A stretch of DNA of 64,000 bases, from UHGV virus genome UHGV-0312702; one strand, given 5' to 3'. How positions within the stretch are numbered: position 1 is the stretch's first letter; each line of letters starts with the position of its first letter. Shown here in pieces: positions 14,571 to 34,030 of the stretch. Both the position numbers and the translations under genes were made by a program. The notes below the pieces were generated by a model, which was not told the origin of the DNA, made no database searches, and was given only the letters and a program-made list of their open reading frames with translations. This DNA is from a virus.

Positions 14571-16187
14571 TCAACGTCTAAGCCCCTCATATGGGTTTCC
14601 TCTCACTAAGTCTGTGTGAGCACCCATTGATGGTGGCTTGAATAATTTAACTTCGTTAAGACTGTTGAAAGCATCACTGGTAGCATCCACTTGGTCATCT
14701 TTAGTTTTACCATCACCACAAAAGCCTTCAAGCTCTTGGAAGTAAGCTTCATTCCAACTACCTCTCAAGACTTTTACAAGCCCAGCTTCAGAAGCAGCAG
14801 AAAACCCCGCAAATCGGGTAACTTTGTCTTTGTTTGTTGGTTTAGCTCTTGCTCGATAACCTTTCTCGGCAAGTTTCCTGATGAGGGATGTTGCGTAGGA
14901 TTTACCAGCAGCGCCTGGGTCTTGAGGGATAAAAATACCAGTTCGCTTACCGTCACTTTCAGCAGTCAAATTAATTTGTGTTTCGACTCCAGAGGGTCTA
15001 TCTCTAAATCTTACTACATCAATGATATAATAGCAACCGTCTTTTTTAGATTTACCCATCTTAACACCTGCTGTCCAGTCTGGATTAGGGTTAATCTCAG
15101 ATGGTAAAGTTGCTGCTAAGTCCCATGCCCTGACATCGAATACGTCTTCTGGGAGTGAATCAACAATCTCACACCACTGTCTTTGCCAATAGTTTGAACC
15201 TTCTGCACGAGCCTTCCAGTTACCGAAACGAAGTCTTGCAACGTTTACAGGAGTGTTGTTTTCCAACTTACCACGATACTTTGGTTCTAAGAAGTCAAGA
15301 ATTGGGTTATCATCAATCGTACCGGAGATGAAGGTGTATGTTTGAGGAATCTCAAGAGGGAACATTTCAAGAATCTTGTCTCTTTCCCAATCAGAAACCA
15401 TCACACCATCATTCATCACATACCAACGAATACGACCACACTTTTCAGGGTCTGGATAACCTTCTTCATCTAAGAATGGTTCTACCCAATCATAAATAAA
15501 ATGGTCCCTGTCTGGGTTCATGGAAATCTTCATGTATGAGTCACCTTCAGCACCAGAACGTAGACGAGTCTGTAGGTATGAAATCTGTGAAGCAGAGAAG
15601 TGTGTACCTTCGTCAAAGTAAATAGCTGAGTATTCAATACCCTGATGACCTTCAGCGTGCTTTTCAAGTTCTAGGTAGGTAAACTTGATAGTTGCCCCAG
15701 AAGGGAATGTGATAGTCATCTTCTGCTCGTGAGGAACCCCACCAAACTTACCAAACAGTTTCTTTGCAGCAGGCCACAAACCACCTTGTAACTGTGTCGT
15801 ATTTCGACGGAAATATACAGCATTATAATTAGGGTCTTCAATAAATCTTAAAGAGTCCATTAATAATGCAGCAGTTTTACCAGCACCAGCAGCACCACCA
15901 TATAGAACCAAGTCAGCATTGGTGTTTAAAAAGACCTCTTGAGAACCCGGCTGAGGGGCTACATAATTCTTATCAGTCATTAATTTGAAGATAAGTCTAA
16001 CTTGGTCTGGTGTGTATCTTAATAAAGTCAGAATTTGAGTTGGAAGGAATTTAGAGGGGTCTTTACCGAATGATTTAATAATTTCTTTTACTTCATCAGA
16101 AAGCCCCAACTCTCCAGCTAGGACTTTCCTAACATCTTCCACTCGCTTCTGCTTAACAGCGTTTAAGTCCATTAAGCACCTCCGCAA
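14571..16187 (-). CDS. terL: terminase large subunit, 538 aa
   Basis: Walker A ATPase motif (LVLYGGAAGAGKTAAL) in N-terminal half, nuclease-sized C-terminal half, followed by portal gene. Confidence 0.85.
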   Translation of the reverse strand: MRRCLMDLNAVKQKRVEDVRKVLAGELGLSDEVKEIIKSFGKDPSKFLPTQILTLLRYTPDQVRLIFKLMTDKNYVAPQPGSQEVFLNTNADLVLYGGAAGAGKTAALLMDSLRFIEDPNYNAVYFRRNTTQLQGGLWPAAKKLFGKFGGVPHEQKMTITFPSGATIKFTYLELEKHAEGHQGIEYSAIYFDEGTHFSASQISYLQTRLRSGAEGDSYMKISMNPDRDHFIYDWVEPFLDEEGYPDPEKCGRIRWYVMNDGVMVSDWERDKILEMFPLEIPQTYTFISGTIDDNPILDFLEPKYRGKLENNTPVNVARLRFGNWKARAEGSNYWQRQWCEIVDSLPEDVFDVRAWDLAATLPSEINPNPDWTAGVKMGKSKKDGCYYIIDVVRFRDRPSGVETQINLTAESDGKRTGIFIPQDPGAAGKSYATSLIRKLAEKGYRARAKPTNKDKVTRFAGFSAASEAGLVKVLRGSWNEAYFQELEGFCGDGKTKDDQVDATSDAFNSLNEVKLFKPPSMGAHTDLVRGNPYEGLRR

Positions 16188-16394: not shown

Positions 16395-16616
16395 TATGTT
16401 TTCTCCAAATAATTAATTTTGTTTCTCCTTAAAAAAGACGGCACAGAGACCGTCAAGGAGAAACCACAATGTACGTCAGAGACATACTGTATAAGGCTTC
16501 TTATAAAGTATAACTCTGTAAAAAAGCCCTGTCTAAAAATACTCTTCGGTAGCGAAAGGAAGAATACTTATAGCAGGGCATTATTATTATTTTAATTGAG
16601 AGAGAGTAAAATAACT

Positions 16617-16692
16617 TGGAGAATCCGAAGGGACTCGAACCCTTATAAACCTGTTTTGCAGACAGGCACATAGCCATTTCTGTCACGGATTC
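16617..16692 (-). tRNA. tRNA-Cys (anticodon GCA)
   Basis: Hand-folded cloverleaf: acceptor CGGATTC pairs with GAATCCG, T-loop TTCGAGT, anticodon loop CTGCAAA, CCA encoded. Confidence 0.75.
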
Positions 16693-16696
16693 AAAT

Positions 16697-16789
16697 TGGA
16701 GGAAGATACCAGACTTGAACTGGTACACCGATTTCTCAGCTACTGGCAGTTTAGCAAACTGCTCCCTTACCTTTTAGGGTTAATCTTCC
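16697..16789 (-). tRNA. tRNA-Ser (anticodon GCT), class II with long variable arm
   Basis: Acceptor GGAAGAT/ATCTTCC, anticodon stem GCAGT/ACTGC with loop TTGCTAA, long variable arm, T-loop TTCAAGT. Confidence 0.7.
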
Positions 16790-16790
16790 A

Positions 16791-17525
16791 TTATTTCTGT
16801 AATGCGCTCTTCATTTCTGGTGTTGCAATAGTGTCAATCACACCAGTTTTACAAGCATCATCAAACCAGTCTGGTAAGATACCTGCTAAGAACCCATTGA
16901 TATTCGTTTTAAGGTACTCTGCAATAAGGGCAGCTTCTTCTTCAATCATCTGCACAACTTCATCTGCATAAGCTGTAATCTTTGAGATACCTTCATTAAT
17001 CTTACTAACAGCCTGATTAGCTAAATCAGAAACAGTATCAAGACCCTTATCAATAGCATCTTGTAAGTCACTTAATACATCATTAACGCTGTCTAGTGTA
17101 TCATTAATAGCATCAATAGCTTTTTGACCATACTCTGTAGCAACACCCATAATACCGCTGAATGGTGTACAACCAACTTGTTCTCCCGCTGCACCCATAA
17201 CATTGGAATATCCCTTTGCTACCTGCATACGTGATGAAAACTCGTCAATAGACTTTTGACCGTAGTCTGTTAGGGTCTTAGTAGTTGCTGTAGTGCTTGT
17301 CAGACTCGTTGTAAAGCTGTTTAGAAGGACTGTTGTAAGTCCAGCAGCAACAAGTTTTTCCTTCATTGCAGGGTCTGTTACAGAGCTAATAGAGCTTACA
17401 AGTGATGTAGAGGCAGCTACGGTTCCACCTAGAACTGCTGCACCAGTAATAAGGGGGTTAGAAAACCCTTTACCAGTTTTTAAGAGATTAAAAATCTCCT
17501 TACCTTGTCCTGTCATCTCTTTCAT
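16791..17525 (-). CDS. hypothetical Ser/Thr-rich protein embedded in tRNA island, about 245 aa
   Basis: ORF-track start (17588, GTG) would overlap tRNA-Phe; first ATG that clears the tRNA is at 17525. Confidence 0.5.
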   Translation of the reverse strand: MKEMTGQGKEIFNLLKTGKGFSNPLITGAAVLGGTVAASTSLVSSISSVTDPAMKEKLVAAGLTTVLLNSFTTSLTSTTATTKTLTDYGQKSIDEFSSRMQVAKGYSNVMGAAGEQVGCTPFSGIMGVATEYGQKAIDAINDTLDSVNDVLSDLQDAIDKGLDTVSDLANQAVSKINEGISKITAYADEVVQMIEEEAALIAEYLKTNINGFLAGILPDWFDDACKTGVIDTIATPEMKSALQK

Positions 17526-17543
17526 TAAGCACCTTTGAAATTG

Positions 17544-17618
17544 GTAGTCCAGTGGGATTTGAACCCTCTTCTCATGTTTTTCAGACACGCGCTTTAACCA
17601 TATAAGCTACTTGGACTA
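17544..17618 (-). tRNA. tRNA-Phe (anticodon GAA)
   Basis: Acceptor TAGTCCA/TGGACTA, anticodon stem CGTGT/ACATG, loop CTGAAAA, T-loop TTCAAAT. Confidence 0.7.
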
Positions 17619-17623
17619 TAAAT

Positions 17624-17700
17624 TGGGGTGACCTACGGGATTTGAACCCGTATAGACCATGTTCACAGCATGGGTCATTACCATTTATGATAAGGCCACA
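17624..17700 (-). tRNA. tRNA-His (anticodon GTG)
   Basis: Anticodon stem CCATG/CATGG with loop CTGTGAA; discriminator C; CCA encoded. Confidence 0.7.
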
Positions 17701-17730
17701 TTTAAGGACTCTCGTAAGAACCCTTAGAAG

Positions 17731-17806
17731 TGGCAGCGGCATAAGGATTTGAACCTTAATAGGACAGCTTCAGAGACTGTTGCATTGCCAGTTATGCTAT
17801 ACCGCT
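17731..17806 (-). tRNA. tRNA-Gln (anticodon CTG)
   Basis: Acceptor AGCGGTA/TGCCGCT, anticodon loop CTCTGAA, T-loop present. Confidence 0.65.
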
Positions 17807-17811
17807 AAATT

Positions 17812-17890
17812 TGGTACTCCATATCGGATTCGAACCGATACATAACACAGATTTTAAGTCTGGCCTCTCTGCCAATTGGAGTAATGGAGC
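17812..17890 (-). tRNA. tRNA with leucine anticodon TAA but class I architecture (short variable loop)
   Basis: Acceptor GCTCCAT/ATGGAGT, D-arm CTCC-AATTGGCAG-AGAG, anticodon stem CCAGA/TCTGT loop CTTAAAA, 7-nt variable loop, T-arm ATCGG-TTCGAAT-CCGAT, discriminator A. Confidence 0.6.
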
Positions 17891-17892
17891 AT

Positions 17893-17968
17893 TGGCGGGG
17901 GATGTTGGAATTGAACCAACTTCTTCGATTTCAAAGACCGAGGTTTTAACCTTGTAAACTAATCCCCT
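17893..17968 (-). tRNA. tRNA-Gln (anticodon TTG)
   Basis: Anticodon stem TCGGT/ATCGA loop CTTTGAA; T-arm GTTGG-TTCAATT-CCAAC; A1-C72 mismatch. Confidence 0.65.
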
Positions 17969-17976
17969 TTAAATCT

Positions 17977-18534
17977 TTACTTTCTTAGTGGATGAATAAA
18001 GAATGCCAACATAACTCTTTCCCTTGAGAATGCTCTTTCTTCTGGGACAACACTTTTAAGTTTCCACCCAACATAAATTCTCCAGTAAAATTGTTTACCA
18101 AAGACTTTAATTGATGGGATAAAAGCAAATAATCCCCAAGCATTGCTGTTCCACATTAGGAGATAACCTGTCTGATTATCTTCAGGGTTAGAACTTACGT
18201 TGATATTACCTTTCCACTTAGTAACATCTTTTACATCTCTTCCTAACACATGGTAAGAGAAGTTATAAGCTTTGTTTCTCCAGAGCCATCCAACTCTCTG
18301 CATATAAACACCGAGCTTACCAATCTTTCTAATCTTAGCCCATCGTTTGATATGACCTGCATCACCATCAATTGGGTTGTCATAAGTCTCCATCCATCTG
18401 AAACCAAAAGGCAGATGACCTTTCTTCTCACTGTAGAATGGGACTACGAAAGGTGCTAAGATAACTGCCAAGATTGCTGCAAATGGCTCTAACAAAGCTA
18501 AGAAAATCCATGAAGCATACTTCAAATATCTCAT
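17977..18534 (-). CDS. hypothetical membrane protein embedded in tRNA island, 185 aa
   Basis: ORF with hydrophobic N-terminus (IFLALLEPFAAILAVILAPFVVPF). Confidence 0.5.
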   Translation of the reverse strand: MRYLKYASWIFLALLEPFAAILAVILAPFVVPFYSEKKGHLPFGFRWMETYDNPIDGDAGHIKRWAKIRKIGKLGVYMQRVGWLWRNKAYNFSYHVLGRDVKDVTKWKGNINVSSNPEDNQTGYLLMWNSNAWGLFAFIPSIKVFGKQFYWRIYVGWKLKSVVPEERAFSRERVMLAFFIHPLRK

Positions 18535-18773
18535 TGTCTAATCCTAGTAAGGAGGTAAACATTATTATTTGTTTCTGAGTTTTCTGGTAAAGCTGTCTCA
18601 AAATTGACGCTTTTAAATTGTCTCCCACCAAAGTAATGACCAATAAATTTTTGTACTTTTATTGGGTCACATTCCCAGCCAACTTTCAAGAAAATGTGGG
18701 TATCTATAGTGGGAACCCTTACAAACTCAATACTATTGGAATTTTCATGTTCAACGACGATTAATGTTTGCAT
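18531..18773 (-). CDS. hypothetical protein, 80 aa
   Basis: ORF overlapping the start of the downstream gene by 4 nt. Confidence 0.4.
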   Translation of the reverse strand: MQTLIVVEHENSNSIEFVRVPTIDTHIFLKVGWECDPIKVQKFIGHYFGGRQFKSVNFETALPENSETNNNVYLLTRIRQ

Positions 18774-18791
18774 AAATCTCTCTTATTTATC

Positions 18792-18867
18792 TGGCGCAGG
18801 ATAAGGGACTTGAACCCCTATTAACAGCTTCGTAGACTGTTGCTCTATCCATTTGAACTAATCCTGC
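18792..18867 (-). tRNA. tRNA-Arg (anticodon ACG)
   Basis: Acceptor GCAGGAT/ATCCTGC, anticodon loop CTACGAA, CCA encoded. Confidence 0.7.
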
Positions 18868-18872
18868 AAAAT

Positions 18873-18950
18873 TGGTGTTCCAAGACGGATTCGAACCGTC
18901 ACTAGTACAAGGTTTGAGCTTGCATCCTCTGCCAATTGGGATACTGGAAC
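18873..18950 (-). tRNA. tRNA with leucine anticodon CAA but class I architecture
   Basis: Acceptor GTTCCAG/TTGGAAC, D-arm TCCC-AATTGGCAG-AGGA, anticodon stem GCAAG/CTTGT loop CTCAAAC, 6-nt variable loop, T-arm GACGG-TTCGAAT-CCGTC; only 84 nt available between flanking tRNAs. Confidence 0.6.
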
Positions 18951-18951
18951 A

Positions 18952-19026
18952 TGGTACTCACTAAAGGACTTGAACCTTTTTCTTCATCTTGTAAGGGTGA
19001 TGTTTTACCATATAAACTAAGCGAGT
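18952..19026 (-). tRNA. tRNA-Val (anticodon TAC)
   Basis: Acceptor ACTCGCT/AGTGAGT, anticodon loop CTTACAA, T-arm AAAGG/CCTTT. Confidence 0.65.
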
Positions 19027-19122
19027 GTGAAAGAGGTCTGAAGTTGTGCCACTAACTCAACTCCGTGGAATTTGTTACGGTCTTCAGTTGACTCAAAGTG
19101 GTCTTTCACTTGACCTCTGAAT
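19027..19122 (-). ncRNA. candidate structured small RNA in tRNA-cluster spacer (not a tRNA)
   Basis: 96-nt spacer with complementary ends (AGAGGTC ... GACCTCT) and nested complementary segments (GTGAAAGA/TCTTTCAC, CTGAAG/CTTCAG); no T-loop motif. Confidence 0.3.
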
Positions 19123-19198
19123 TGGTGCTCCCACAAGGATTCGAACCCTGATAAGTTGCTTACAAGGCAACCGTAATAGCCAATTATACGATAGGAGC
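19123..19198 (-). tRNA. tRNA-Thr (anticodon TGT)
   Basis: Anticodon stem GTTGC/GCAAC with loop CTTGTAA; T-loop TTCGAAT. Confidence 0.7.
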
Positions 19199-19205
19199 AT
19201 TAATT

Positions 19206-19280
19206 TGGAGCATCCAGAGGGAATCGAACCCTCAACCTCAGTTTGGAAGACTGTAATTTTCCCGTTTAAACTATGGATGC
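19206..19280 (-). tRNA. tRNA-Gly (anticodon TCC)
   Basis: Acceptor GCATCCA/TGGATGC perfect 7 bp, anticodon loop CTTCCAA. Confidence 0.7.
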
Positions 19281-19286
19281 ACTAAT

Positions 19287-19362
19287 TGGTGGAGAAGCAG
19301 GGAATTGAACCCTGTACTTAAGTTTGCAAAACTTATGTTTTAACCATGTAAACTACATCCCC
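19287..19362 (-). tRNA. tRNA-Ala (anticodon TGC)
   Basis: Anticodon stem TAAGT/ACTTA loop TTTGCAA; G3-U70 wobble pair present (Ala identity element); T-arm CAGGG-TTCAATT-CCCTG. Confidence 0.7.
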
Positions 19363-19368
19363 AATGTT

Positions 19369-19444
19369 TGGTACAGGTGGAGGGAATTGAACCCATCGTC
19401 TTACTGATTAAGAGTCAGCCGCATAACCATTTTGCTACACCTGC
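19369..19444 (-). tRNA. tRNA-Lys (anticodon CTT)
   Basis: Acceptor GCAGGTG/CACCTGT, anticodon loop CTCTTAA. Confidence 0.65.
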
Positions 19445-19451
19445 ATTAATT

Positions 19452-19528
19452 TGGTACACCTAGAGAGATTCGAACTCACACTGAGCAGATTCTAAGTCTG
19501 CTGCCTCTACCAGTTGGGCTATAGGTGC
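19452..19528 (-). tRNA. tRNA with leucine anticodon TAG but class I architecture
   Basis: Acceptor GCACCTA/TAGGTGT, D-arm GCC-CAACTGGTAGA-GGC, anticodon stem GCAGA/TCTGC loop CTTAGAA, 5-nt variable loop. Confidence 0.6.
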
Positions 19529-19786
19529 ATTAAATCTTTTTAGAGAACTTCTAAGAACCTAAGCAACAAGGTTCCACAACAAGCTGTAATAACCTTAGAA
19601 GCCCTCTAAAAAGACCTAAAAAGGTCTTTGCATAGTCTTGTTTAATCCGGTGACTAGAACCTTTGGAGAGCTTGATATTATCTCTTCTCCGTGACACCTA
19701 CTAGGTGCTTTACTGTGCGTGTACGACAATACACGAGGGATACCAAAGCAACATCCGAATGAAGCTTGGCTTTAAATCTTATTAGG

Positions 19787-19874
19787 CGGTAAGTAAAGGA
19801 GTCGAACCCTCACCGTATCTCTACAGTGGCAACTGTTTTCAAGACAGTTTGGCTACCATTAGCCGCTACCTACC
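19787..19874 (-). tRNA. tRNA-Ser (anticodon TGA), class II
   Basis: 88 nt, acceptor GGTAGGT/ACTTACC, anticodon stem ACTGT/ACAGT loop CTTGAAA, long variable arm; CCA not encoded. Confidence 0.6.
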
Positions 19875-19887
19875 CCTAATAAGACTT

Positions 19888-19970
19888 TGGCATGGGACGG
19901 AGGAGTTGAACCCCTTTGAAACGGTTTTGGAGGCCGTTGCTCATGCCTTAGAGTCTTAACATCGTCCCAC
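19888..19970 (-). tRNA. tRNA-Trp (anticodon CCA), atypically long 5' half
   Basis: Acceptor GTGGGAC/GTCCCAT, anticodon loop CTCCAAA, T-arm GGGG-TTCAACT-CCTC; D-arm region about 7 nt longer than canonical. Confidence 0.5.
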
Positions 19971-20112
19971 ACTATAATTCGAAACTTACCGTATTATCTC
20001 AACACTGTAAAGCCCCTTCTCAGATTATTTACATGTTCTGGAAAACATGAGATACAGACCACCTCCCTACAGGAAGACCCGCTTAGGTCGTCTAAGTAAT
20101 CTGCTAACTAAT

Positions 20113-20189
20113 TGGCACACCCTACAGGATTCGAACCTGTAACTAACGATTTAGAAGACCGTTGCTCTATCCAATTGAACTAAGGGTGC
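20113..20189 (-). tRNA. tRNA-Arg (anticodon TCT)
   Basis: Anticodon stem ACGGT/ATCGT loop CTTCTAA; acceptor GCACCCT/AGGGTGT. Confidence 0.65.
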
Positions 20190-20526
20190 ATTAATCTTTA
20201 AAGACTCTCTTAGAAAGCCCTTAAAGATGCCCACCTTATTAATCATACCGTGGGCTAGTACGCCAAATTCTTTGATGAGGGATTGGAAGACCTCACTGGT
20301 GTTTAGCCTATCAAGCTACTGCCAGAAAAACATTGTCGTTTGCATTTATTTTAAATTTGCAAAATAGACGCTACGCAACGAAAACTATTCAGAATATGTA
20401 CAACAAATTTCCCCACATTGTGTTACGTCTAACGCTCATGTATTGGTGTTTGAATTATACATATTATGAATTATTTTTAGTTACTATAAAGTAGTCACAT
20501 CTCAATGTCAACAACTTTATTGAAAT

Positions 20527-20601
20527 TGGTTGTAGGTGAGGGTATCGAACCCTCTTCTAACGGTTATCAGCCGTTTGCATTACCATTTATGCTAACCCAC
20601 A
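20527..20601 (-). tRNA. tRNA-Ile (anticodon GAT)
   Basis: Anticodon stem AACGG/CCGTT loop CTGATAA; T-arm GAGGG-TTCGATA-CCCTC. Confidence 0.7.
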
Positions 20602-20602
20602 A

Positions 20603-20680
20603 TTGGAGGTTCAGGTGGGAATCGAACCCACATTCATAGGGCTTATGAAACCCCTGCATTACCTTATCTGCGACTGAACC
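20603..20680 (-). tRNA. tRNA-Met (anticodon CAT), elongator-like
   Basis: Perfect acceptor GGTTCAG/CTGAACC, anticodon stem GGGGT/GCCCT loop TTCATAA. Confidence 0.6.
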
Positions 20681-20684
20681 ATAT

Positions 20685-20760
20685 TGGTAGAAGTGGAGGG
20701 ATTCGAACCCATCGCCTGTCAGATTAAAAGTCTGCCGCATCACCATTCTGCTACACTTCC
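20685..20760 (-). tRNA. tRNA-Lys (anticodon TTT)
   Basis: Acceptor GGAAGTG/CACTTCT, anticodon loop CTTTTAA. Confidence 0.65.
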
Positions 20761-20909
20761 ATTAAATTATCTTTGTAGATAAGCTACCCAGACTTGCTTA
20801 AGGTCTGTAGCGATGTGCCTTGTTGGGTTTAAATCTAGAATTTACCCTTTCACCCTTTGTGGTCGCATACTCACAGGTAAGCTTAATAGCTCACCTACAA
20901 AGATAATTA

Positions 20910-21041
20910 CCAGACCGTTGTTTATCATCTTAAGTGCTACCATTACACCAACTCGACATCTGCCGAGTGAAGGAATCGAACCTTCGCCTTTTCTTTACCG
21001 GAGAAATAGATTGTTTAAGTTTTGCTGTAAACGGTCTTCTG
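20910..21041 (-). repeat. bounded spacer unit D (CCAGACC ... TGCTGTAAACGGTCTTCTG) containing a tRNA-like T-arm
   Basis: Shares both end motifs with units at 21055, 21484, 21637; contains GAAGG-AATCGAA-CCTTC (tRNA T-arm signature at 20969-20985) but no canonical anticodon loop or acceptor pairing. Confidence 0.5.
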
Positions 21042-21054
21042 TAAATTTGTTGAG

Positions 21055-21128
21055 CCAGACCAAGTTTTAAATTTTCAAAATTAAATTGGCTTGAAATTTC
21101 ATACATTCTTGCTGAATTTGGTCTTCTG
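21055..21128 (-). repeat. bounded spacer unit A (CCAGACC ... TGCTGAATTTGGTCTTCTG)
   Basis: Same terminal motifs as units B, C, D; the two ends are mutually complementary (AGACC/GGTCT). Confidence 0.5.
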
Positions 21129-21215
21129 CTCCTTTAAAGAATACTCGCAAGAACTCTTTAAGGGAGGGGCTAAATAGCCCTCTCAAAACATCATTTTGAA
21201 ATACTTATTATAATT

Positions 21216-21293
21216 TGGCGGTTACGAAGGGATTTGAACCCTCATCATCTCCCGTGACAGGGGAGTATTTTAACCAGATTAAACTACATAACC
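21216..21293 (-). tRNA. tRNA-Asp (anticodon GTC)
   Basis: Anticodon stem CTCCC/GGGAG loop CTGTCAC; acceptor GGTTATG/CGTAACC. Confidence 0.65.
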
Positions 21294-21298
21294 TTTAT

Positions 21299-21386
21299 TG
21301 GTGTGCCGTGTAGGAGTCGAACCTACCGAGTCTCAATGACAAGGGATTTACAGTCCCCACCGCTACCATCTACGGGATAACGACAC
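21299..21386 (-). tRNA. tRNA-Tyr (anticodon GTA), class II
   Basis: 88 nt; acceptor GTGTCGT/ACGGCAC, anticodon stem GGGA/TCCC loop CTGTAAA, long variable arm. Confidence 0.65.
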
Positions 21387-21395
21387 ATTTTAATT

Positions 21396-21472
21396 TGGCG
21401 GTTAGTCAGGGATTCGAACCCTGTGCCATTCGCTTAACAGGCGACCGCACATACCTTATGTGCTTCCTAACC
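21396..21472 (-). tRNA. tRNA-Asn (anticodon GTT)
   Basis: Anticodon loop CTGTTAA; T-arm CAGGG-TTCGAAT-CCCTG. Confidence 0.65.
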
Positions 21473-21483
21473 TTAATACATTG

Positions 21484-21542
21484 CCAGACCGTGTTTTTCT
21501 TTTATCCGCAAAAAGTAGTTTGTTGCTGAATACGGTCTTCTG
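21484..21542 (-). repeat. bounded spacer unit B (CCAGACC ... TGCTGAATACGGTCTTCTG)
   Basis: 59-nt unit between tRNA-Asn and the second CAT tRNA with the same end motifs. Confidence 0.5.
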
Positions 21543-21548
21543 CAAAAT

Positions 21549-21625
21549 TGGAGGCGGGTGCAGGAGTCGAACCTGCCGATACCATGCTAATGAGACATGT
21601 GAGACGCCCTTTCTCTATACCCGCA
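21549..21625 (-). tRNA. tRNA with anticodon CAT, second copy (initiator Met or Ile-lysidine type), atypical
   Basis: Anticodon stem CATGT/GCATG loop CTCATTA (pyrimidine at 37); acceptor pairs only with a 1-72 mismatch or a 1-nt register shift; D-stem GAGA/TCTC. Confidence 0.5.
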
Positions 21626-21636
21626 ATTCTTAATGA

Positions 21637-21709
21637 CCAGACCAAATCTCTTCTTTGTCCGATTGAATGTCAGATGAATAAGATTAAATTTGCTGTAATT
21701 GGTCTTCTG
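21637..21709 (-). repeat. bounded spacer unit C (CCAGACC ... TGCTGTAATTGGTCTTCTG)
   Basis: 73-nt unit between the CAT tRNA and tRNA-Glu with the same end motifs. Confidence 0.5.
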
Positions 21710-21716
21710 TCAAAAC

Positions 21717-21791
21717 TGGTGTCGTAGACAGGATTCGAACCTGCGAGCAACTGATTGAAGGTCAGGTGGCTAACCATTTGCCTTCTACGAC
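21717..21791 (-). tRNA. tRNA-Glu (anticodon TTC), C at position 33
   Basis: Perfect acceptor GTCGTAG/CTACGAC, anticodon stem CTGA/TCAG with loop CCTTCAA. Confidence 0.55.
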
Positions 21792-21792
21792 A

Positions 21793-22149
21793 TTAAACCA
21801 TTGTAATTCCACTATGAACCTCTCTGTGGCAATTAGCGCATAGCAAAACACATTTATCAAGTTCTTTTTTAACCTTTTCCCAAGATGCACCCATAAGTTT
21901 TGATGGTGTATTCTCTTTTTCGTTTGGGTTAAGGTGATGCCATTCTAAAGCATTTTTACATTTATTATAGCCACAAATTATGCAACTATCGCCATAAAGC
22001 TTATATGCTTTCTCCCTATTGGCATCCTCTCTAAGTTTTGTCCTTAATGCACAACATTTTAGACAATTTACTCTATTACCGGCGTTACCATTCTTATGAA
22101 TGCTATGTTCAGTTAAACCATGAACTGGACATTCTTTTAAAAATCTCAT
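21793..22149 (-). CDS. HNH homing endonuclease, about 118 aa
   Basis: Cys-rich zinc-finger region plus HNH motif (EWHHLNP ... LLCANCHREVH); ORF-track start at 22227 overlaps tRNA-Pro, so the start is placed at the ATG at 22149. Confidence 0.7.
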   Translation of the reverse strand: MRFLKECPVHGLTEHSIHKNGNAGNRVNCLKCCALRTKLREDANREKAYKLYGDSCIICGYNKCKNALEWHHLNPNEKENTPSKLMGASWEKVKKELDKCVLLCANCHREVHSGITMV

Positions 22150-22166
22150 AGTAACCCCTTTAAATT

Positions 22167-22243
22167 TGGTCTCTGTTGGAGGACTTGAACCTCCGGCCTT
22201 ACCGCCCCAAACGGAACGCTCTACCAAGCTGAGCTAAACAGAG
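22167..22243 (-). tRNA. tRNA-Pro (anticodon TGG)
   Basis: Perfect acceptor CTCTGTT/AACAGAG, D-arm GCTC-AGCTTGGTA-GAGC, anticodon loop TTTGGGG, T-arm GGAGG-TTCAAGT-CCTCC. Confidence 0.75.
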
Positions 22244-22408: not shown

Positions 22409-23824
22409 TTACCAGATGTAACGGTCAATCATTACTGCTTTGAGCATTACGCTGATTGGGTCAAACTTCTCACCACCAAGCAGGGCTTTTAAAGTGGCTG
22501 GGGAGAACCCTGATACCATTGCTACACCGTTATCCTTAACAGACACTTCGCAAGTACCACTACGGTTTGCTAAGTACCAGAATACCAGTTGTGGCATTTC
22601 GTATCCAGCTTTTTTGTACTTACTACGAATTGCTTCAAAGTTTGTACGACCATTTGCACCATCAACCTGATTGAACTCCATATCAGAGAAGATGATAAGC
22701 TTACTTGGCATATCTTTCTGAGTCAAGTTGTTTCTCTTGCCTGTCTCAAGAATACGGTCAAAAGCTGCTTGTAAGTTGGTTGAACCATATTCAACATGAC
22801 GCATTACCTGACGGTGACGGTTTCGTAAATCACCACTCAGTTCGATGAAATGAGGGTTTGTTGAATAAACCATTAACTCGTTCTTAAAGCAACCTGTATT
22901 GCGTTCTGCTACATACAAGGCAAGTGATACACCAATATCGAGGGCAGTAATTGAGCCAAGATTCACCCAAGACATTGAGCTTGAAACATCAGTCATACAC
23001 AAGATGTTTTCACCTTCTGCCATCCAGTTTGGTAGTGCTTTCCACTGCTCATTAGCAACATCTGCATTACCATACTTGATAGATTTAATCACATCGTATG
23101 GATAAACAGCACCAGCATTAATCTTAGTCTCACCCTTTGATAAGGACTCAACGTAAGCTTTGTAGCGTTCTCCATCTTTACGGTTAAATAATTTTTGGTA
23201 ACGTGCAGCAGCAAGTGAAGGAATCTTACTGTAGTCAATCTTACCAAACTCATTAGCAGAGATTTTTTGTTCAACTGTATCAGATAGTGCAGACAGCAGT
23301 GTGCGGTACTCTTTCTCGCTCAAGTTTGCAAACTTACAGAAACGTTTTACAAACTGTTTGTGACGTGGTTTTACTCGTGGTAACCACTTAGCTGCTAAAC
23401 CTGCTGTTGCAGGGTCTAGTAAAGCTGCTTCTAAATGTTTGAAGGCATCTGTCTCAAAACGAGTACCTACAAAGATTTTGAAGTCATCAAAGCGACCAAG
23501 CTCTGCAATCTTATCCATAATGCGAAGAACCTGTGTAGGCTCTAAAACTTTATCTTCAATCGCTTGAAGTAAAACAGTTCGGAAAGCCTTACGCTCACCC
23601 ATACCTTCTCGTACATCTCGCATATGCAGTAAAATACGAACTGCAACATCAACATCCTCATGCAAAGCTTTGTAGAACAAGTCTGGTAAGATTTCTACAT
23701 TGCTACGGCTAGAACCAGCAGCTTTGTAAAAGTCTACAAGAGCAGACATTGATGAAGTATGGTTTACAGCACCATTTTCAGTTCGACCTGCATGAAGGTG
23801 CGCATGTTTAAATAATTCGCTCAT
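22409..23824 (-). CDS. rsr: Ro60/Rsr-like protein (TROVE-like N-terminal region plus vWA domain), 471 aa
   Basis: C-terminal vWA with MIDAS DxSxS (CMTDVSSSMS) followed by ...LIIFSDMEFN...; segment VYPYDVIKSIKYG ... ENILCMTDVSSSM parallels the Ro60 region preceding its vWA domain; recognition from memory, not searched. Confidence 0.65.
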   Translation of the reverse strand: MSELFKHAHLHAGRTENGAVNHTSSMSALVDFYKAAGSSRSNVEILPDLFYKALHEDVDVAVRILLHMRDVREGMGERKAFRTVLLQAIEDKVLEPTQVLRIMDKIAELGRFDDFKIFVGTRFETDAFKHLEAALLDPATAGLAAKWLPRVKPRHKQFVKRFCKFANLSEKEYRTLLSALSDTVEQKISANEFGKIDYSKIPSLAAARYQKLFNRKDGERYKAYVESLSKGETKINAGAVYPYDVIKSIKYGNADVANEQWKALPNWMAEGENILCMTDVSSSMSWVNLGSITALDIGVSLALYVAERNTGCFKNELMVYSTNPHFIELSGDLRNRHRQVMRHVEYGSTNLQAAFDRILETGKRNNLTQKDMPSKLIIFSDMEFNQVDGANGRTNFEAIRSKYKKAGYEMPQLVFWYLANRSGTCEVSVKDNGVAMVSGFSPATLKALLGGEKFDPISVMLKAVMIDRYIW

Positions 23825-23905: not shown

Positions 23906-24277
23906 TTATTTTTTAAGAGTCGCTACAGCAGAGAACGTTGGTTTGTTATCTGTCTGAGGTTGACCACCGTTATCGGGGGTCTTCTTAGTGTCTGCTGCAA
24001 GTGCTTTCATCTCACCTGCTGAGTGAGTAAAGATAGTTTTACCAACTTCAATCATGCTCTTGATGGTTACGTCATCTGTATTTAACCCGAACTCTGCAAG
24101 CTTAGCAGCATCCCTTGTAACAATCGCTTCAAATAACTTTGCAGCAAACTCAGCAGAATTGTCAATGGTCAGTTGAGCTTTTACAAGTGAGCTTTTGTTA
24201 CGAGAGCCTTTTGGTCTTCCAGATGGGTTTCCAGATTGGCCTTTTTTAAACTGGCCTTTGTTTGTTCTGTTTTTCAT
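23906..24277 (-). CDS. hypothetical basic protein with GNPSGRPKG motif, 123 aa
   Basis: ORF; N-terminal KGQSGNPSGRPKGSRNK suggests nucleic-acid binding. Confidence 0.45.
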   Translation of the reverse strand: MKNRTNKGQFKKGQSGNPSGRPKGSRNKSSLVKAQLTIDNSAEFAAKLFEAIVTRDAAKLAEFGLNTDDVTIKSMIEVGKTIFTHSAGEMKALAADTKKTPDNGGQPQTDNKPTFSAVATLKK

Positions 24278-24525
24278 TGCTATGCCTCTTATAAGACCTC
24301 TTAAAAGGCTTTTAAGATAAAAGATAGATATCCAGAAAGATATCTGTTTAAATAGCCTTTTTAGAGGAACCTTTTAAGTTATCTTCTAAGTATTTATAAG
24401 CCTATACCTTGTCAAGCCCTTTGTCAACAACTTTTTTAACTTGCAATAGTTCTTGACTTGTTGTATGGATTACTGTACCATCTTACTTAAAGCTGTAGGT
24501 CTGCCTTGTTCTACAAAGGAGACTT

Positions 24526-30705: not shown

Positions 30706-31170
30706 ATGAAAGTTAAAGTAGTAGTTCAAAAAGCAATGCTTAACAACTCAACTAAAGATAAAATGTACAAAGAGATTTGTGATAAGTTGAATTGTTCAAG
30801 ACATGCTGCTAAGGCTCTTGTACATTGCTTTATCTTGGAATGCTCAGAAGCTTATATGAAACATGTAGCTTTTGAAAGTTCTAGCTTACTAGGTGATGTA
30901 GAAGTTGGTGAGAAGCTAAAAGAGCCTGAGATGAAAACAGTTCCTAAAGTTGGTAATGTATACCGCCTTAAAGACTTCAAGACTGGAGAGGTTGTTGCAA
31001 AAGGTGTAGTAGAATCTGTTTATCATGACGGTAAATACCTATTTAAGATATTTGAGTGTGATAGCATCTATTTACATTTGTTTGGGCTTACATTCTTAGT
31101 AACAGAAGAAGACCTCATTAAGAACAACGGCAACAAGTTTGCAGTTCCAGCTTACCAAGTTTTACGATAA
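30706..31170 (+). CDS. hypothetical protein, 154 aa
   Basis: ORF with AGAAGG RBS. Confidence 0.45.
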   Translation: MKVKVVVQKAMLNNSTKDKMYKEICDKLNCSRHAAKALVHCFILECSEAYMKHVAFESSSLLGDVEVGEKLKEPEMKTVPKVGNVYRLKDFKTGEVVAKGVVESVYHDGKYLFKIFECDSIYLHLFGLTFLVTEEDLIKNNGNKFAVPAYQVLR

Positions 31171-31732
31171 TGGTGTGATAGATATGGAAAAAGATAACTT
31201 AAAAGATGTTGAAGGTAACTATCTAGTCCTTGATTGGAGTGATGCTCAAGAAGCACTCTCTGAAGAAAGTCTTGACAGATTAAAACAGATTGTTTTTGCA
31301 GTACGGGGTTACAGAGAAGTTAAAAATGGTAAAGACCCACTTGAAGGAGTCTTTGTAGAGAAATCTTATCCGTTCTATGAAGACACTTTGCAGAAAGTCA
31401 AGATGTACTTTAGACAGAAGAACCGTAAAGTGGTCACTATGGTATCTCTTGGTGGACAGAGTATGTCTGTGATGGAAGATATCAACCCTAAGAGACCGAG
31501 TAAAGGTGTTTGTATAAAAACCACAGGTCATGAAGAGTACATCTCAGTGGATGATTTTAGTTCATTCTGTAGTGGTTCTTGTGTCTTTAATGGTTTTCAC
31601 TATGATATCCGAGTGTACCCAATCAAGGGAGATGATATCATGATGCAGGTATTCGATAATAACAATGGATTTACTCATTTTTATCAGACAACCAAGTCAT
31701 CGCTGAAGACAGTTCTGGAAACACTGATTTAA
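31139..31732 (+). CDS. hypothetical protein, up to 197 aa (true start may be the internal ATG near 31184)
   Basis: ORF; first ATG overlaps previous gene by 32 nt. Confidence 0.4.
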   Translation: MQFQLTKFYDNGVIDMEKDNLKDVEGNYLVLDWSDAQEALSEESLDRLKQIVFAVRGYREVKNGKDPLEGVFVEKSYPFYEDTLQKVKMYFRQKNRKVVTMVSLGGQSMSVMEDINPKRPSKGVCIKTTGHEEYISVDDFSSFCSGSCVFNGFHYDIRVYPIKGDDIMMQVFDNNNGFTHFYQTTKSSLKTVLETLI

Positions 31733-31742
31733 AATATCTTAA

Positions 31743-31776
31743 GAGCCTCCTTAATCGGGGGCTTTTTAATTTTTAT
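31743..31776 (+). terminator. rho-independent terminator closing the + strand block
   Basis: AGCCTCC-TTAATC-GGGGGCT hairpin followed by TTTTTAATTTTTAT. Confidence 0.6.
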
Positions 31777-31859
31777 AAAATTTTATCGGTTGTCCCAACC
31801 TCTGGGTCACCATCATATGTGAACAAAATATCTACCCTCTTAATAACCTTCTTAATCTT

Positions 31860-31900
31860 ACTCTCTATATAGTTATATAGTACTATATAGTATCTTAGTA
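31860..31900. repeat. AT-rich tandem TATATAGT repeats
   Basis: ctctatatagt tatatagta ctatatagta in the ORF-free region. Confidence 0.5.
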
Positions 31901-32099
31901 CCTATCTAGTGGTTTTAATAGCCCCTCTGTATAGCCCTTCTAAACACTCTTCTAACAAGCCTTTTTAACAACCTATACAATCACCTTAACCACCTCTCTA
32001 TACACTCTTAGAAGCTCCTATACACATCTTAATCTCTATGTCAGCTATGATACCCTCTATAGGTGTTCACTAGGTATTACTAAGCCTCTATATAGACTG

Positions 32100-32850
32100 T
32101 TTTAACAAACTTAACAGGAATATCTTCACAGACCTTATCTCACAAGGTCTAACACGGTACTAACAAGGTATCTTATAAGCCTGTTTCTACCTGTATTTTT
32201 AAAAGACTGTCTAGGTAATTATTCAGAATTTTAAAATTTTTATAAAATAGGACTATCAAGTCATTTTTTAGGGTCTTTGAAGGAACTGAAAAATATCTGT
32301 CTAGGATGTATATCTGCTTGGTAGCCCTTAACATCCCTGTAACATCCCCTTTGCAGAATTTTAAAATATCCTTAACAATCTCTTAACAGCTCTTACATCT
32401 TCTTAACATCTCTTCAGAGGTCTTAACAGATTCTTAACAGAACTAACAAGGATGTAACAAGTTCTTAACAGTCGATACATAGGCTTTACAGAGTCTTAAC
32501 AGATGACTAACAAGAGCTAACAAGTTAATTTTTAAGAGTTATTTTGTTAAGATAATTAACAAGTTTCTAACAAGTGTTTAATCTTTTTAACAAGCTATTA
32601 ACATGGTCACTACTCTTTTCTTATCGTTCCCTCTACCTTCTTAGTGATTCTCTAAACATACCTCTTAAAAGCTCTCTATAGCTACTTATAAGCCCTTTTA
32701 AGCCTCTTCCTAGTAACTACACCCCAACTATACAGACACCTATTTATAGAGCTTTACAGGAGCTTTTAAGGCTATGCCAAAGGTTCTTACAAGTCTTTTA
32801 CGTGGTCTTAACAGAGATTTAACAAGGGGCTAACAAGTTGCTAACAAGTG
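32100..32850. repeat. iteron-like array, more than 20 copies of CTTAACAG / CTAACAAG / TTAACAAG
   Basis: Copies at about 10-11 bp phasing (for example tcttaacaga-ttcttaacag-aactaacaagg at 32421-32451; gctaacaagttgctaacaagtg at 32829-32850); no ORF of 60 aa or more on either strand in 31733-33389. Confidence 0.6.
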
Positions 32851-33325
32851 CCTTAAAAGCATAACTATGTAGGGATTGTTAAGAAATTGTTAAGAAAATG
32901 TTAAGGGGGCTAGCATTTACGTAACTTTATAGCCTCTTTTACGTAACTTTTAAGCTACTTCAGAGTAACTTTATAGCCCCTATAACATACTTTTTAGTGA
33001 CTATCAAGGGGATTGTTTAACTATTCACAAGATACTAACGAGATAATAAAGCTCATAACCTTATAAGATTCTTTTAAGCCTCTATAAAGCCCTGTAAAGA
33101 GCTTTTAAGGGTGAGTTAATGCAATCCCTTAAGTTAGATTGATAAGGCTGTTATAGCGCTTTATAGAGCGTTTAAACGGTTGCCCTTCCCTTTCGGGTTA
33201 TGGGCTTATATTTAAGTTGATTTGATAAGGGGCTATAGAGTAAGCTATAGAGTTATTACTTTTAAGGTATGAGATAGATTCTATCGAATCAGTGGGAAAG
33301 ATTCTGGGAAGGGATTGGATAGACG

Positions 33326-33352
33326 TAAAAAAGCCCCTATAAGAAGGAGCTT
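33326..33352 (-). terminator. rho-independent terminator closing the - strand small-gene array (possibly bidirectional)
   Basis: AGCCCC / GGAGCT stem flanked by A-run on one side and T-run on the other. Confidence 0.5.
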
Positions 33353-33389
33353 TTCAGGTATCTGGGGCTATTTAGCCCCGTTGCGTCGA

Positions 33390-33638
33390 TTAGTTGTAAC
33401 CTTGTTTGCTGTAGTATAGGGAGACGATTTTTTCTCCCCAGTAGTGGTAGTGATATTCCTCGTTTATGGCTTCTTTTACAGCATCCTTCCAAAAGTCATC
33501 GGTAGGGTTATAATCTGGTAGCACCTGCTGAATCAGCATTTTGATAAGGTCAAAGGTGTTATCTGTGCCACCGATATCGAATTTTGCATCAAGTTCGTGG
33601 CAGCCATAAGCATTAACAGTTACGCGGATAGTTGACAT
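33390..33638 (-). CDS. hypothetical protein, 82 aa
   Basis: ORF preceded by conserved leader cassette. Confidence 0.45.
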   Translation of the reverse strand: MSTIRVTVNAYGCHELDAKFDIGGTDNTFDLIKMLIQQVLPDYNPTDDFWKDAVKEAINEEYHYHYWGEKIVSLYYSKQGYN

Positions 33639-33705
33639 AATTTAGATTCTCCAGTTTAGGACTTTATTTAGTGGGAAGGTTAATCCCTCCCCGTTGATTA
33701 GTAAT

Positions 33706-33969
33706 TTACTGCATGTTGGCGTATGTTGCAAGCCTTTTTTCGTTGTATTTTGTCAGAATCTCACAAGATAAAACATCATATTTTGTAACCGCTTTGCCTT
33801 TGTCGAGGTCAAAGAATCCGAACGCTTTACCGTCTTTGAATCCGACAACCTCGTAAGACTCTTTGATGATTTCACCATTGAACAAATCACTTTCGATACG
33901 GTGGAATAGTGCTACATCCTCTTTGTCGGATGCAATTTGTAAAAGTGTGGTCAGTTCGACGTGTTCCAT
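33706..33969 (-). CDS. hypothetical protein, 87 aa
   Basis: ORF preceded by conserved leader cassette. Confidence 0.45.
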   Translation of the reverse strand: MEHVELTTLLQIASDKEDVALFHRIESDLFNGEIIKESYEVVGFKDGKAFGFFDLDKGKAVTKYDVLSCEILTKYNEKRLATYANMQ

Positions 33970-34030
33970 TTTGAATCTCCAGTTTAGGATTTTATTTAGT
34001 GGGGGAGGTCATCCCCCGTTGATTGACAAT

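Follow-up and report, generated by a model that had tools for sequence, protein, structure and literature searches.

Phased convergent TTAACA arrays in the probable genome-end region of a Felix O1-like phage and their possible link to a candidate small terminase

Short direct terminal repeats (DTRs) have been reported for several Felix O1-like phages. For instance, UAB_Phi87 has a DTR of 608 bp according to Bal31 digestion and run-off sequencing (PMC4837284), Pr103Blw has one of 581 bp according to PhageTerm (PMC8303462), and Ro111lw has one of 613 bp (PMC6454146), while HP1 is described as having "direct repeats at both termini" (PMC9120918) and the original Felix O1 genome paper only inferred "short terminal repeats" (PMC3185647). 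In the parts of the latter paper that deal with repeats, intergenic regions, and origins, the region and its repeats are not described, and the other papers cited here, in what they say about terminal repeats, give just the length of the DTR. Here, we describe the corresponding locus in a 64,000-nucleotide stretch of viral DNA (UHGV virus genome UHGV-0312702, hereafter the window), in which positions 31733–33389, a total of 1,657 bp between the stop codons of two converging gene blocks at 31732 (plus strand) and 33390 (minus strand), contain no open reading frame (ORF) of at least 60 amino acids. We propose that this ORF-free region is very probably the genome-end, or concatemer-junction, region of a Felix O1-like myophage, in which arrays of phased repeat cores would guide the terminase, and that positions 32320–32910 are almost certainly the DTR of this phage, as judged by homology. 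The locus itself is therefore already known, as the mapped DTR of the Felix O1-like phages.

The evidence for the genome ends comes from relatives. The region was matched in 276 phage records, 208 of which cover at least 80% of it at 80–92% identity, and almost all of the matching records belong to Felixounavirus or Mooglevirus (Ounavirinae, Felix O1-like myophages); on this similarity, the window belongs to a Felixounavirus. Among the matches listed, five end-defined records break off sharply at query position 1211 (32910 in the window), and one further record begins near 32311. Three records have an exact repeat at both ends, namely, Pr103Blw (581 bp, annotated as "short direct terminal repeat region"), I14.1 (581 bp), and the Mooglevirus HP1 (570 bp, annotated as a repeat_region), and a BLAST comparison of these ends with the window placed the left one at 32910 and the right one at 32320 for each record. 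These positions delimit the 591 bp that we take as the DTR, so that the ORF-free region would correspond to a concatemer junction with its two flanks. Thus, the repeat is found at both virion ends by homology with the records of three relatives and with UAB_Phi87, and its boundaries are fixed and unpermuted, given that independent records of two genera end at identical bases within invariant or nearly invariant blocks. As a separate observation, the I14.1 record (PP892526.1, vB_EcoM_I14.1) is filed as a Tequintavirus, while its sequence and its 581-bp DTR are those of a Felixounavirus.

When the locus is compared with the DTRs of UAB_Phi87, Pr103Blw, Ro111lw, and HP1, there is no difference in kind: it is the same locus at 74–92% identity, its edges agree to the base, and the flanking genes are shared. 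The homologous DTR stretch ranges from 558 to 614 bp in 14 genomes (614 bp in UAB_Phi87, as delimited by boundary words), and the length is 591 bp here because the number of 11-bp units differs from that in the relatives. The window also encodes a large terminase subunit, TerL, at 14571–16187 on the minus strand (Pfam Terminase_6N, E = 9e-43; Terminase_6C, E = 4e-33). A clustering of TerL in a "Felixounalikevirus DTR group" is taken from the UAB_Phi87 report (PMC4837284).

The region is bounded by two convergent intrinsic terminators, each with a hairpin followed by a U-run (Table 1), and in Moogle, terminators are annotated at the places homologous to both. The two hairpins are near-copies of one another, forming an inverted repeat of 24 nt with 75% complementarity, and the left one is kept in Erwinia phages, in which the remaining region does not align. 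Between the terminators, the longest ORF encodes 53 amino acids (32173–32334, minus strand), and no ORF of more than 56 amino acids was found in the homologous stretch of 12 relatives; careful annotations of relatives, for example those of garuso, finno, Bas63, and Moogle, leave the region non-coding throughout. One may ask whether the region nevertheless hides a small protein or a structured non-coding RNA, since tiny ORFs are annotated here in the records of some relatives and the region is conserved to the same degree as the surrounding coding DNA. We consider this highly improbable, because there is no conserved ORF, the 11-bp indels seen in the region are not multiples of three, and neither the search for structured RNAs nor that for promoters gave a signal: an Rfam scan of 31000–34000 with E values of up to 1 returned two chance-level matches and nothing close to threshold, and promoter-like sequences in the region number 9, against 6.8 ± 2.7 expected by chance. 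The GC-rich hairpin at 33182–33205 in the right flank folds no better than shuffled sequences (z = -1.3). As for the 53-amino-acid ORF, it was ruled out as a real gene, given that in most of the 12 relatives it has lost its start codon or acquired stops or frameshifts.

What distinguishes the region from its surroundings is its repeat content. TAACA occurs 28 times on the plus strand, compared with the 2.9 copies expected from the rest of the window, and the longer words TAACAAG (12 copies, 0.17 expected) and CTAACAAG (8 copies, 0.04 expected) are even more in excess. The pattern TAACA[AG]G/TTAACAG has 20 of its 43 plus-strand copies in the window within this 2.6% of the window length (binomial p about 1e-20) and no minus-strand copy in 31733–33389, while TTAA, the center of the cores, is found 25 times in the DTR versus 4.9 expected, and CTNTATAG is nearly private to the region (16 of its 21 copies in the window). 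The distance from core to core is mostly 11 bp and otherwise 9–10, 20, 22, or 33 bp, and the base autocorrelation at lag 11 reaches z = 11 within 32320–32910, with values of 3.6–4.7 in the two flanks and around 1 in coding controls. Such a period would place the cores on nearly one face of the helix. Tandem Repeats Finder additionally identified three copies of CTATATAGT(A) at 31865–31892, three of TGTTAAG spaced by 11 bp at 32875–32905, and 2.9 copies of a 22-bp unit at 32916–32978. What the first-pass annotation of this DNA had described from the letters is therefore borne out, including the absence of ORFs, the convergent terminators, an AT-rich block (located at 32232–32250), more than 20 iteron-like copies at a spacing of 10–11 bp, and additional tandem repeats near 31860–31900 and of GTTAAG type at 32870–32990; a comparison of repeat number across relatives, which it had suggested as a check, showed that copy number varies in whole units of 11 or 20–22 bp.

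This last observation can be read in two ways. Slippage and unequal recombination in a non-coding DTR could homogenize 11-bp units in the absence of any sequence-specific function, and the arrays would then be neutral tandem-repeat debris; the whole-unit indels, the variation in copy number between close relatives (in array B, for instance, it differs by 11 bp), and the great expansion of the neighboring 22-bp repeat in Salmonella phage FM4b all fit such a process. In the reading that we prefer, slippage or unequal exchange would also generate the indels, but selection would tolerate them only as whole units. All seven of the DTR indels longer than 1 bp are indeed 11 or 20–22 bp long, so that the 11-bp register is kept, and across 14 genomes the TAACA positions are significantly more conserved than the other positions of the DTR (0.96 versus 0.87; Mann-Whitney p = 1.6e-7). 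The strand orientation of the cores is also strongly non-random (28 versus 5, p = 7e-5). Together with the persistence of the core, the period, and the convergent orientation in a third genus, as described below, these data make neutral debris quite improbable in our view. For completeness, the expansion of the 22-bp repeat TTTACGTAACTTTATAGCC in FM4b amounts to around 100 bp.

The third genus is Kolesnikvirus, represented here by Erwinia phages. In blastn comparisons with Erwinia phages, there was no alignment within the repeat region, and yet the arrays are present. In phiEa21-4, a syntenic, ORF-free gap of 1.19 kb between convergent gene blocks has the same TTAACA/TGTTAAG cores and a lag-11 autocorrelation of z = 8.1. 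Furthermore, the record of Erwinia phage M7 has an exact 444-bp repeat at both ends that coincides with convergent TTAACA/TGTTAAG arrays, with seven TAACA cores in its left half, 13 inverted cores in its right half, and a lag-11 z of 6.4. These two phages were taken because two other records were unusable: that of EAP4 (OR185440.1) contains a run of Ns and internal duplications, and that of Fifi106 (OR284297.1), which has a 120-bp end overlap, starts in an apparent coding sequence (lag-12/24 periodicity and no repeat arrays) and thus not at a true terminus. In the genomes compared, Felixounavirus, Mooglevirus, and Kolesnikvirus thus share, as a conserved trait, phased convergent TTAACA arrays within the DTR, and we predict that the cores are functional, as supported by their conservation, by the whole-unit indels, and, most strongly, by this retention across genera. 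In addition, the phiEa21-4 flank outside the DTR (positions 16600–16920 of the record) contains another 11-bp-phased array, made up of around 12 copies of CTTCTAA(A/G), which suggests that phased arrays with genus-specific words mark the flanks as well.

The anatomy of the DTR and its flanks is given in Table 1. The units of array A read TCTTAACAG or CTAACAAG, and around 21 cores inside the DTR point rightward while three inverted ones lie at its right edge, so that the arrays converge. The right edge reads ATGTTAAGGGGGC / TAGCATTTACGTAAC, in a block that is 94–98% conserved, and the block spanning the left edge, at 32307–32333, is longer than any other invariant block of the region and is presumably a terminase recognition or nicking site. 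A 10-bp inverted repeat, CCCTTAACAT, is present at 32325–32334 and again in array C, with its two copies lying 5 and 3 nt inside the left and right edges, respectively.

Table 1. Features of the ORF-free region and the candidate array-binding protein (positions in the window).
Feature	Position	Strand	Remarks
Intrinsic terminator closing the plus-strand gene block (ends 31732)	31741–31766	+	Terminator scan; hairpin of -14.5 kcal/mol (z = -3.6) with a U-run behind it
Left unique flank, ~550 bp	31767–32319		Several invariant blocks; lag-11/12 autocorrelation z = 3.6–4.5
CTATATAG repeats, left flank	31865–31892, 32088		
Three TAACA pairs, left flank	31953/31966, 32103/32112, 32150/32161		
Box CAGAATTTTAAAAT	32224–32237, 32354–32367		First copy overlaps the AT-only block and is outside the DTR; second copy is inside the DTR
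AT-only block TAAAATTTTTATAAAATAG, 19 bp	32232–32250		Lies ~70 bp to the left of the DTR; no variation among 13 genomes from two genera
Left-edge block TGTATATCTGCTT/GGTAGCCCTTAACA, 27 bp	32307–32333		Contains the boundary 32319/32320; same sequence in all 13 genomes (two genera)
Direct terminal repeat, 591 bp (by homology)	32320–32910		Exact DTRs of Pr103Blw, I14.1, and HP1 mapped
Array A, with 17 perfect TAACA cores and further degenerate units such as TTACA and TACAT	32329–32605	+	11-bp register
Central DTR, ~180 bp, nearly without TAACA cores	32606–32786		Motifs CTNTATAG, CTTATAAG, CTTTTAAG
Array B, six 11-bp units	32787–32850	+	Four with exact TAACA (32809, 32820, 32831, 32842)
Invariant 16-mer AAGCATAACTATGTAG	32857–32872		Meeting point of plus- and minus-oriented arrays
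Array C, three inverted units TGTTAAG	32875–32907	-	11-bp spacing; abuts the right DTR edge
Right unique flank, ~420 bp	32911–33328		Conserved TAGCATTTACGTAAC at the edge; lag-11 autocorrelation z = 4.7
22-bp repeat TTTACGTAACTTTATAGCC	32916–32978		Just outside the right DTR edge; copy number variable
Duplicated 18-mer TAAGTT(A)GATTGATAAGG	33130–33147, 33213–33230		83 bp apart, with the hairpin 33182–33205 between the copies
Intrinsic terminator closing the minus-strand gene block (ends 33390)	about 33329–33360	-	Hairpin at about 33329–33355; -14.5 kcal/mol, z = -3.1, followed by U6
123-amino-acid DUF5681 protein, candidate small terminase and array binder	23906–24277	-	Pfam DUF5681, E = 2e-14

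A layout of this kind has a well-known parallel in the concatemer junction of T7, which also combines non-coding ends, a short exact DTR (160 bp in T7), and a short motif repeated in and beside the DTR. In the T7 record, CCTAAAG occurs 13 times with a lag-13 autocorrelation of z = 8.2; the arrays of short repeats flanking the T7 repeat are named SRL and SRR. As in T7, the region has a motif in more than ten regularly spaced copies in and beside the repeat, but the resemblance is one of layout only. The motif (CCTAAAG versus TAACA) and the period (12–13 versus 11 bp) differ, there is no sequence homology, and the TerL of the window is of a different type, Terminase_6N/6C. Moreover, the copies in T7 lie mostly beside the repeat, whereas the Felix-type copies lie mostly inside it and form convergent arrays.

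The first-pass annotation had given priority to another reading, a replication origin, in which a phage initiator would bind the phased repeats as iterons and the AT-rich block would serve for unwinding, either instead of or beside the role as a DTR. There are several points in its favor. Direct repeats near an AT-rich block are indeed what is found in iteron origins such as lambda ori and those of theta plasmids; the density of repeats is high; and the 19-bp all-AT block, whose role in unwinding is putative, is invariant and lies around 70 bp from the edge of the DTR. Ends and origins can also coexist, as illustrated by the secondary origins phiOL and phiOR of T7, which lie in its terminal non-coding regions and whose promoters are annotated in T7 records. 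Nevertheless, the unit length and copy number are unlike those of lambda and plasmid origins, which have some 3–7 iterons of around 17–22 bp, whereas the cores here are 5–8 bp long, have a period of 11 bp, and number more than 25. No DnaA box with up to one mismatch was found in 31733–33389, and no initiator gene is evident, given that the five flanking genes scanned had no Pfam family and matched only PHROGs of unknown function. The GC content is low (33.5% in 32001–33000, compared with around 36–43% in most other 1-kb windows), and the GC skew follows gene orientation only. Finally, the repeats are at the genome ends, and the exact coincidence of arrays and DTR, seen in two genera, is directly explained by a function in packaging or at the ends. 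We therefore regard an origin as improbable and that lead reading as unsupported; it was the alternative mentioned beside it, a packaging or terminal region, that was correct, as shown by the ends of the relatives falling exactly at 32320 and 32910.

Taking the region as the genome-end region, we can outline how it might work. By homology, replicating concatemers have the DTR once between genome units, and it is duplicated at packaging so that each virion DNA has a copy at both ends. The flanks of around 550 and 420 bp are non-coding processing flanks, shut off from the neighboring genes by the convergent terminators, and the 11-bp-phased TAACA/TTAACA cores would be protein-binding sites rather than replication iterons. 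An oligomer of the small terminase, for which the best candidate may be the DUF5681 protein encoded at 23906–24277, would load on the helically phased cores, and the loaded complex would place TerL for nicks in opposite strands, one at each invariant edge, where an inward-facing CCCTTAACAT element is found. Strand-displacement synthesis could then duplicate the 591 bp, following the model proposed for the terminal repeat of T7. Multi-site recognition regions for small terminases are well known from the R sites of lambda cosB and the pacL/pacR boxes of SPP1. As proposed here, several phased short sites located by the cut site in those phages load an oligomeric small terminase, which positions TerL; nevertheless, their sites are few and lead to cohesive ends or headful packaging, whereas the window would have more than 25 putative sites spread over a duplicated 591-bp repeat.

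How the arrays would take part in this process is much less certain than the position of the ends, and we see the chances that they serve as binding sites during packaging or the processing of the ends as evenly balanced. Several points weigh against the scheme as a whole. The ends of this particular phage are placed by homology, and the binding of a protein to the cores is a prediction from the DNA sequence. The offsets of CCCTTAACAT from the two edges are unequal (5 versus 3 nt), so that symmetric nicking is a suggestion only, and we know of no established function for the comparable short repeats at the ends of T7. The remaining points concern the DUF5681 protein. Its gene is not adjacent to TerL here but lies 7.7 kb upstream, on the other side of 25 tRNA genes; a short match of the protein to AT-hooks, discussed below, is not significant alone (E = 0.12); its AlphaFold2 model, with a disordered basic arm and four helices, is only moderately confident (pLDDT 68); a Foldseek search of this model against the PDB gave no match with an E value below 3 and no solved small terminase; and in Bas63, the small terminase could instead be encoded by an acidic ORF of 66 amino acids that immediately precedes TerL.

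It is also conceivable that the arrays are a platform for a protein other than the terminase, with a function in end protection or synapsis, in nucleoid-like compaction, or in the control of DNA ejection. The conservation of the cores, their phasing, and their retention across genera argue for binding sites of some kind, with no specific link to the terminase, and both ends of the virion DNA carry the DTR by definition; an ejection-control factor, for instance, would act on the DNA that enters the cell first or last. On the other hand, the analysis yielded no candidate for such a protein, the arrays reach the cut sites with an inverted element at each edge, and the sole conserved essential protein found that combines a motif of DNA-binding type with a genomic link across its family has homologs that adjoin TerL. 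Thus, a non-terminase binder seems unlikely to us, if still a serious candidate.

The protein just mentioned is the 123-amino-acid DUF5681 protein, which also matches a PHROG of unknown function. The first-pass annotation had pointed to it as a basic protein that could bind the repeats; that suggestion is plausible in light of the family assignment, the TerL-adjacent homologs, and an AT-hook-like motif, while the strand it gave for the ORF was wrong, as the gene is on the minus strand. According to the UAB_Phi87 paper (PMC4837284, citing Whichard et al. 2010), neither Felix O1 nor UAB_Phi87 has an identified small terminase. The homolog in Bas63, gp129, had PhageMaP scores of -3.1, -3.2, and -3.5 in MG1655, in the range of the portal and capsid (10.1101/2024.10.10.617714, supplement 3), and on these published data the protein is required for phage production. 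Those data cover genes only and no intergenic sites, and they are therefore silent on whether the DTR arrays are essential.

Genomic context points in the same direction. The gene immediately upstream of TerL occupies the classic position of the small terminase. Within the phage collection, the DUF5681 gene is confined to Ounavirinae, but distant metagenomic members of the family, outside this subfamily, lie directly upstream of TerL, often overlapping it, in four of the five contexts with usable flanks; two of the neighbors, unannotated, matched the PHROG "terminase large subunit" (E = 5e-72 and 2e-99), and in a marine contig the DUF5681 gene is 2.5 kb upstream of TerL. A scan of the metagenomic DUF5681 loci for 11-bp arrays gave only codon-related lag-12 signals. 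In the window, the cluster of 25 tRNA genes (16617–22243, minus strand) separates TerL from both the DUF5681 gene and a Ro60/TROVE-like gene (22409–23824, DUF2828/DUF7788), and this cluster resembles an insertion into what was once a small-terminase/TerL gene pair.

AT-hooks recognize short AT tracts through the minor groove, and the DUF5681 family has an invariant N-terminal motif, KKGQSGNPxGRPKGSxN, that resembles one. When PsGRPKGSrNK was aligned to the second AT-hook of HMGA, PRGRPKGSKNK (PDB 2EZD), 9 of 12 positions were identical. The N-terminal arm of DUF5681 is thus like the HMGA hook in its GRPKGS motif, which is invariant across the family, although DUF5681 has a single hook per chain and its DNA binding is only predicted. 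Searches of PDB sequences with phmmer and hmmsearch found no terminase and only the sub-significant AT-hook match, and in the Foldseek comparison the model matched no solved small terminase, whose fold combines an N-terminal DNA-binding domain with a helical oligomerization core. Taken together, the AT-hook-like motif, the requirement in Bas63, and the homologs upstream of TerL make the protein a plausible missing small terminase. It is possible that the protein binding the arrays is DUF5681, even if we would not yet bet on it, and we are somewhat more tentative about the full proposal, in which the arrays would be the docking platform of an unrecognized small-terminase family, with the AT-hook arm reading TTAA in the minor groove, a hook for each helical turn, and thereby measuring out and positioning the two TerL nicks.

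Two additional observations concern the DUF5681 gene. The divergent intergenic region upstream of it (24278–24505) is packed with CTTTTAAG, CTTATAAG, and CTCTTAAAAG, motifs that also occur in the DTR flanks, and has a 12-bp periodicity (z about 4) and two TTGACA-like boxes; by a rough coordinate offset, it corresponds to the Felix O1 40–41 intergenic region, where a promoter, P41, has been reported. The motif might have a general regulatory role in this phage group. Separately, Felix O1-like sequence is present in the 147-kb record GU169904.1, "Staphylococcus phage SA1"; its DUF5681 gene shares 99% identity with that of the window, and the record is probably chimeric or contaminated.

The value of the result is mainly that of a correction. 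A combination of iterons and an AT-rich block would be annotated as an origin, while here it is a packaging or terminal region, and the phages concerned form a very common group, used in therapy and typing. In practice, positions 32320 and 32910 show annotators where such genomes open and close, and phage engineers can identify around 1.6 kb to keep intact. As far as the literature searched shows, two aspects appear to be new, namely, the phased TTAACA arrays as a conserved and apparently selected feature of the DTR in three genera and the essential DUF5681 protein as a strong candidate for the small terminase. If the proposed docking of DUF5681 on the arrays is true, the "missing" small terminase of Felix O1 would be identified, and there would be a concrete recognition code for a myophage that packages its DNA with direct terminal repeats.

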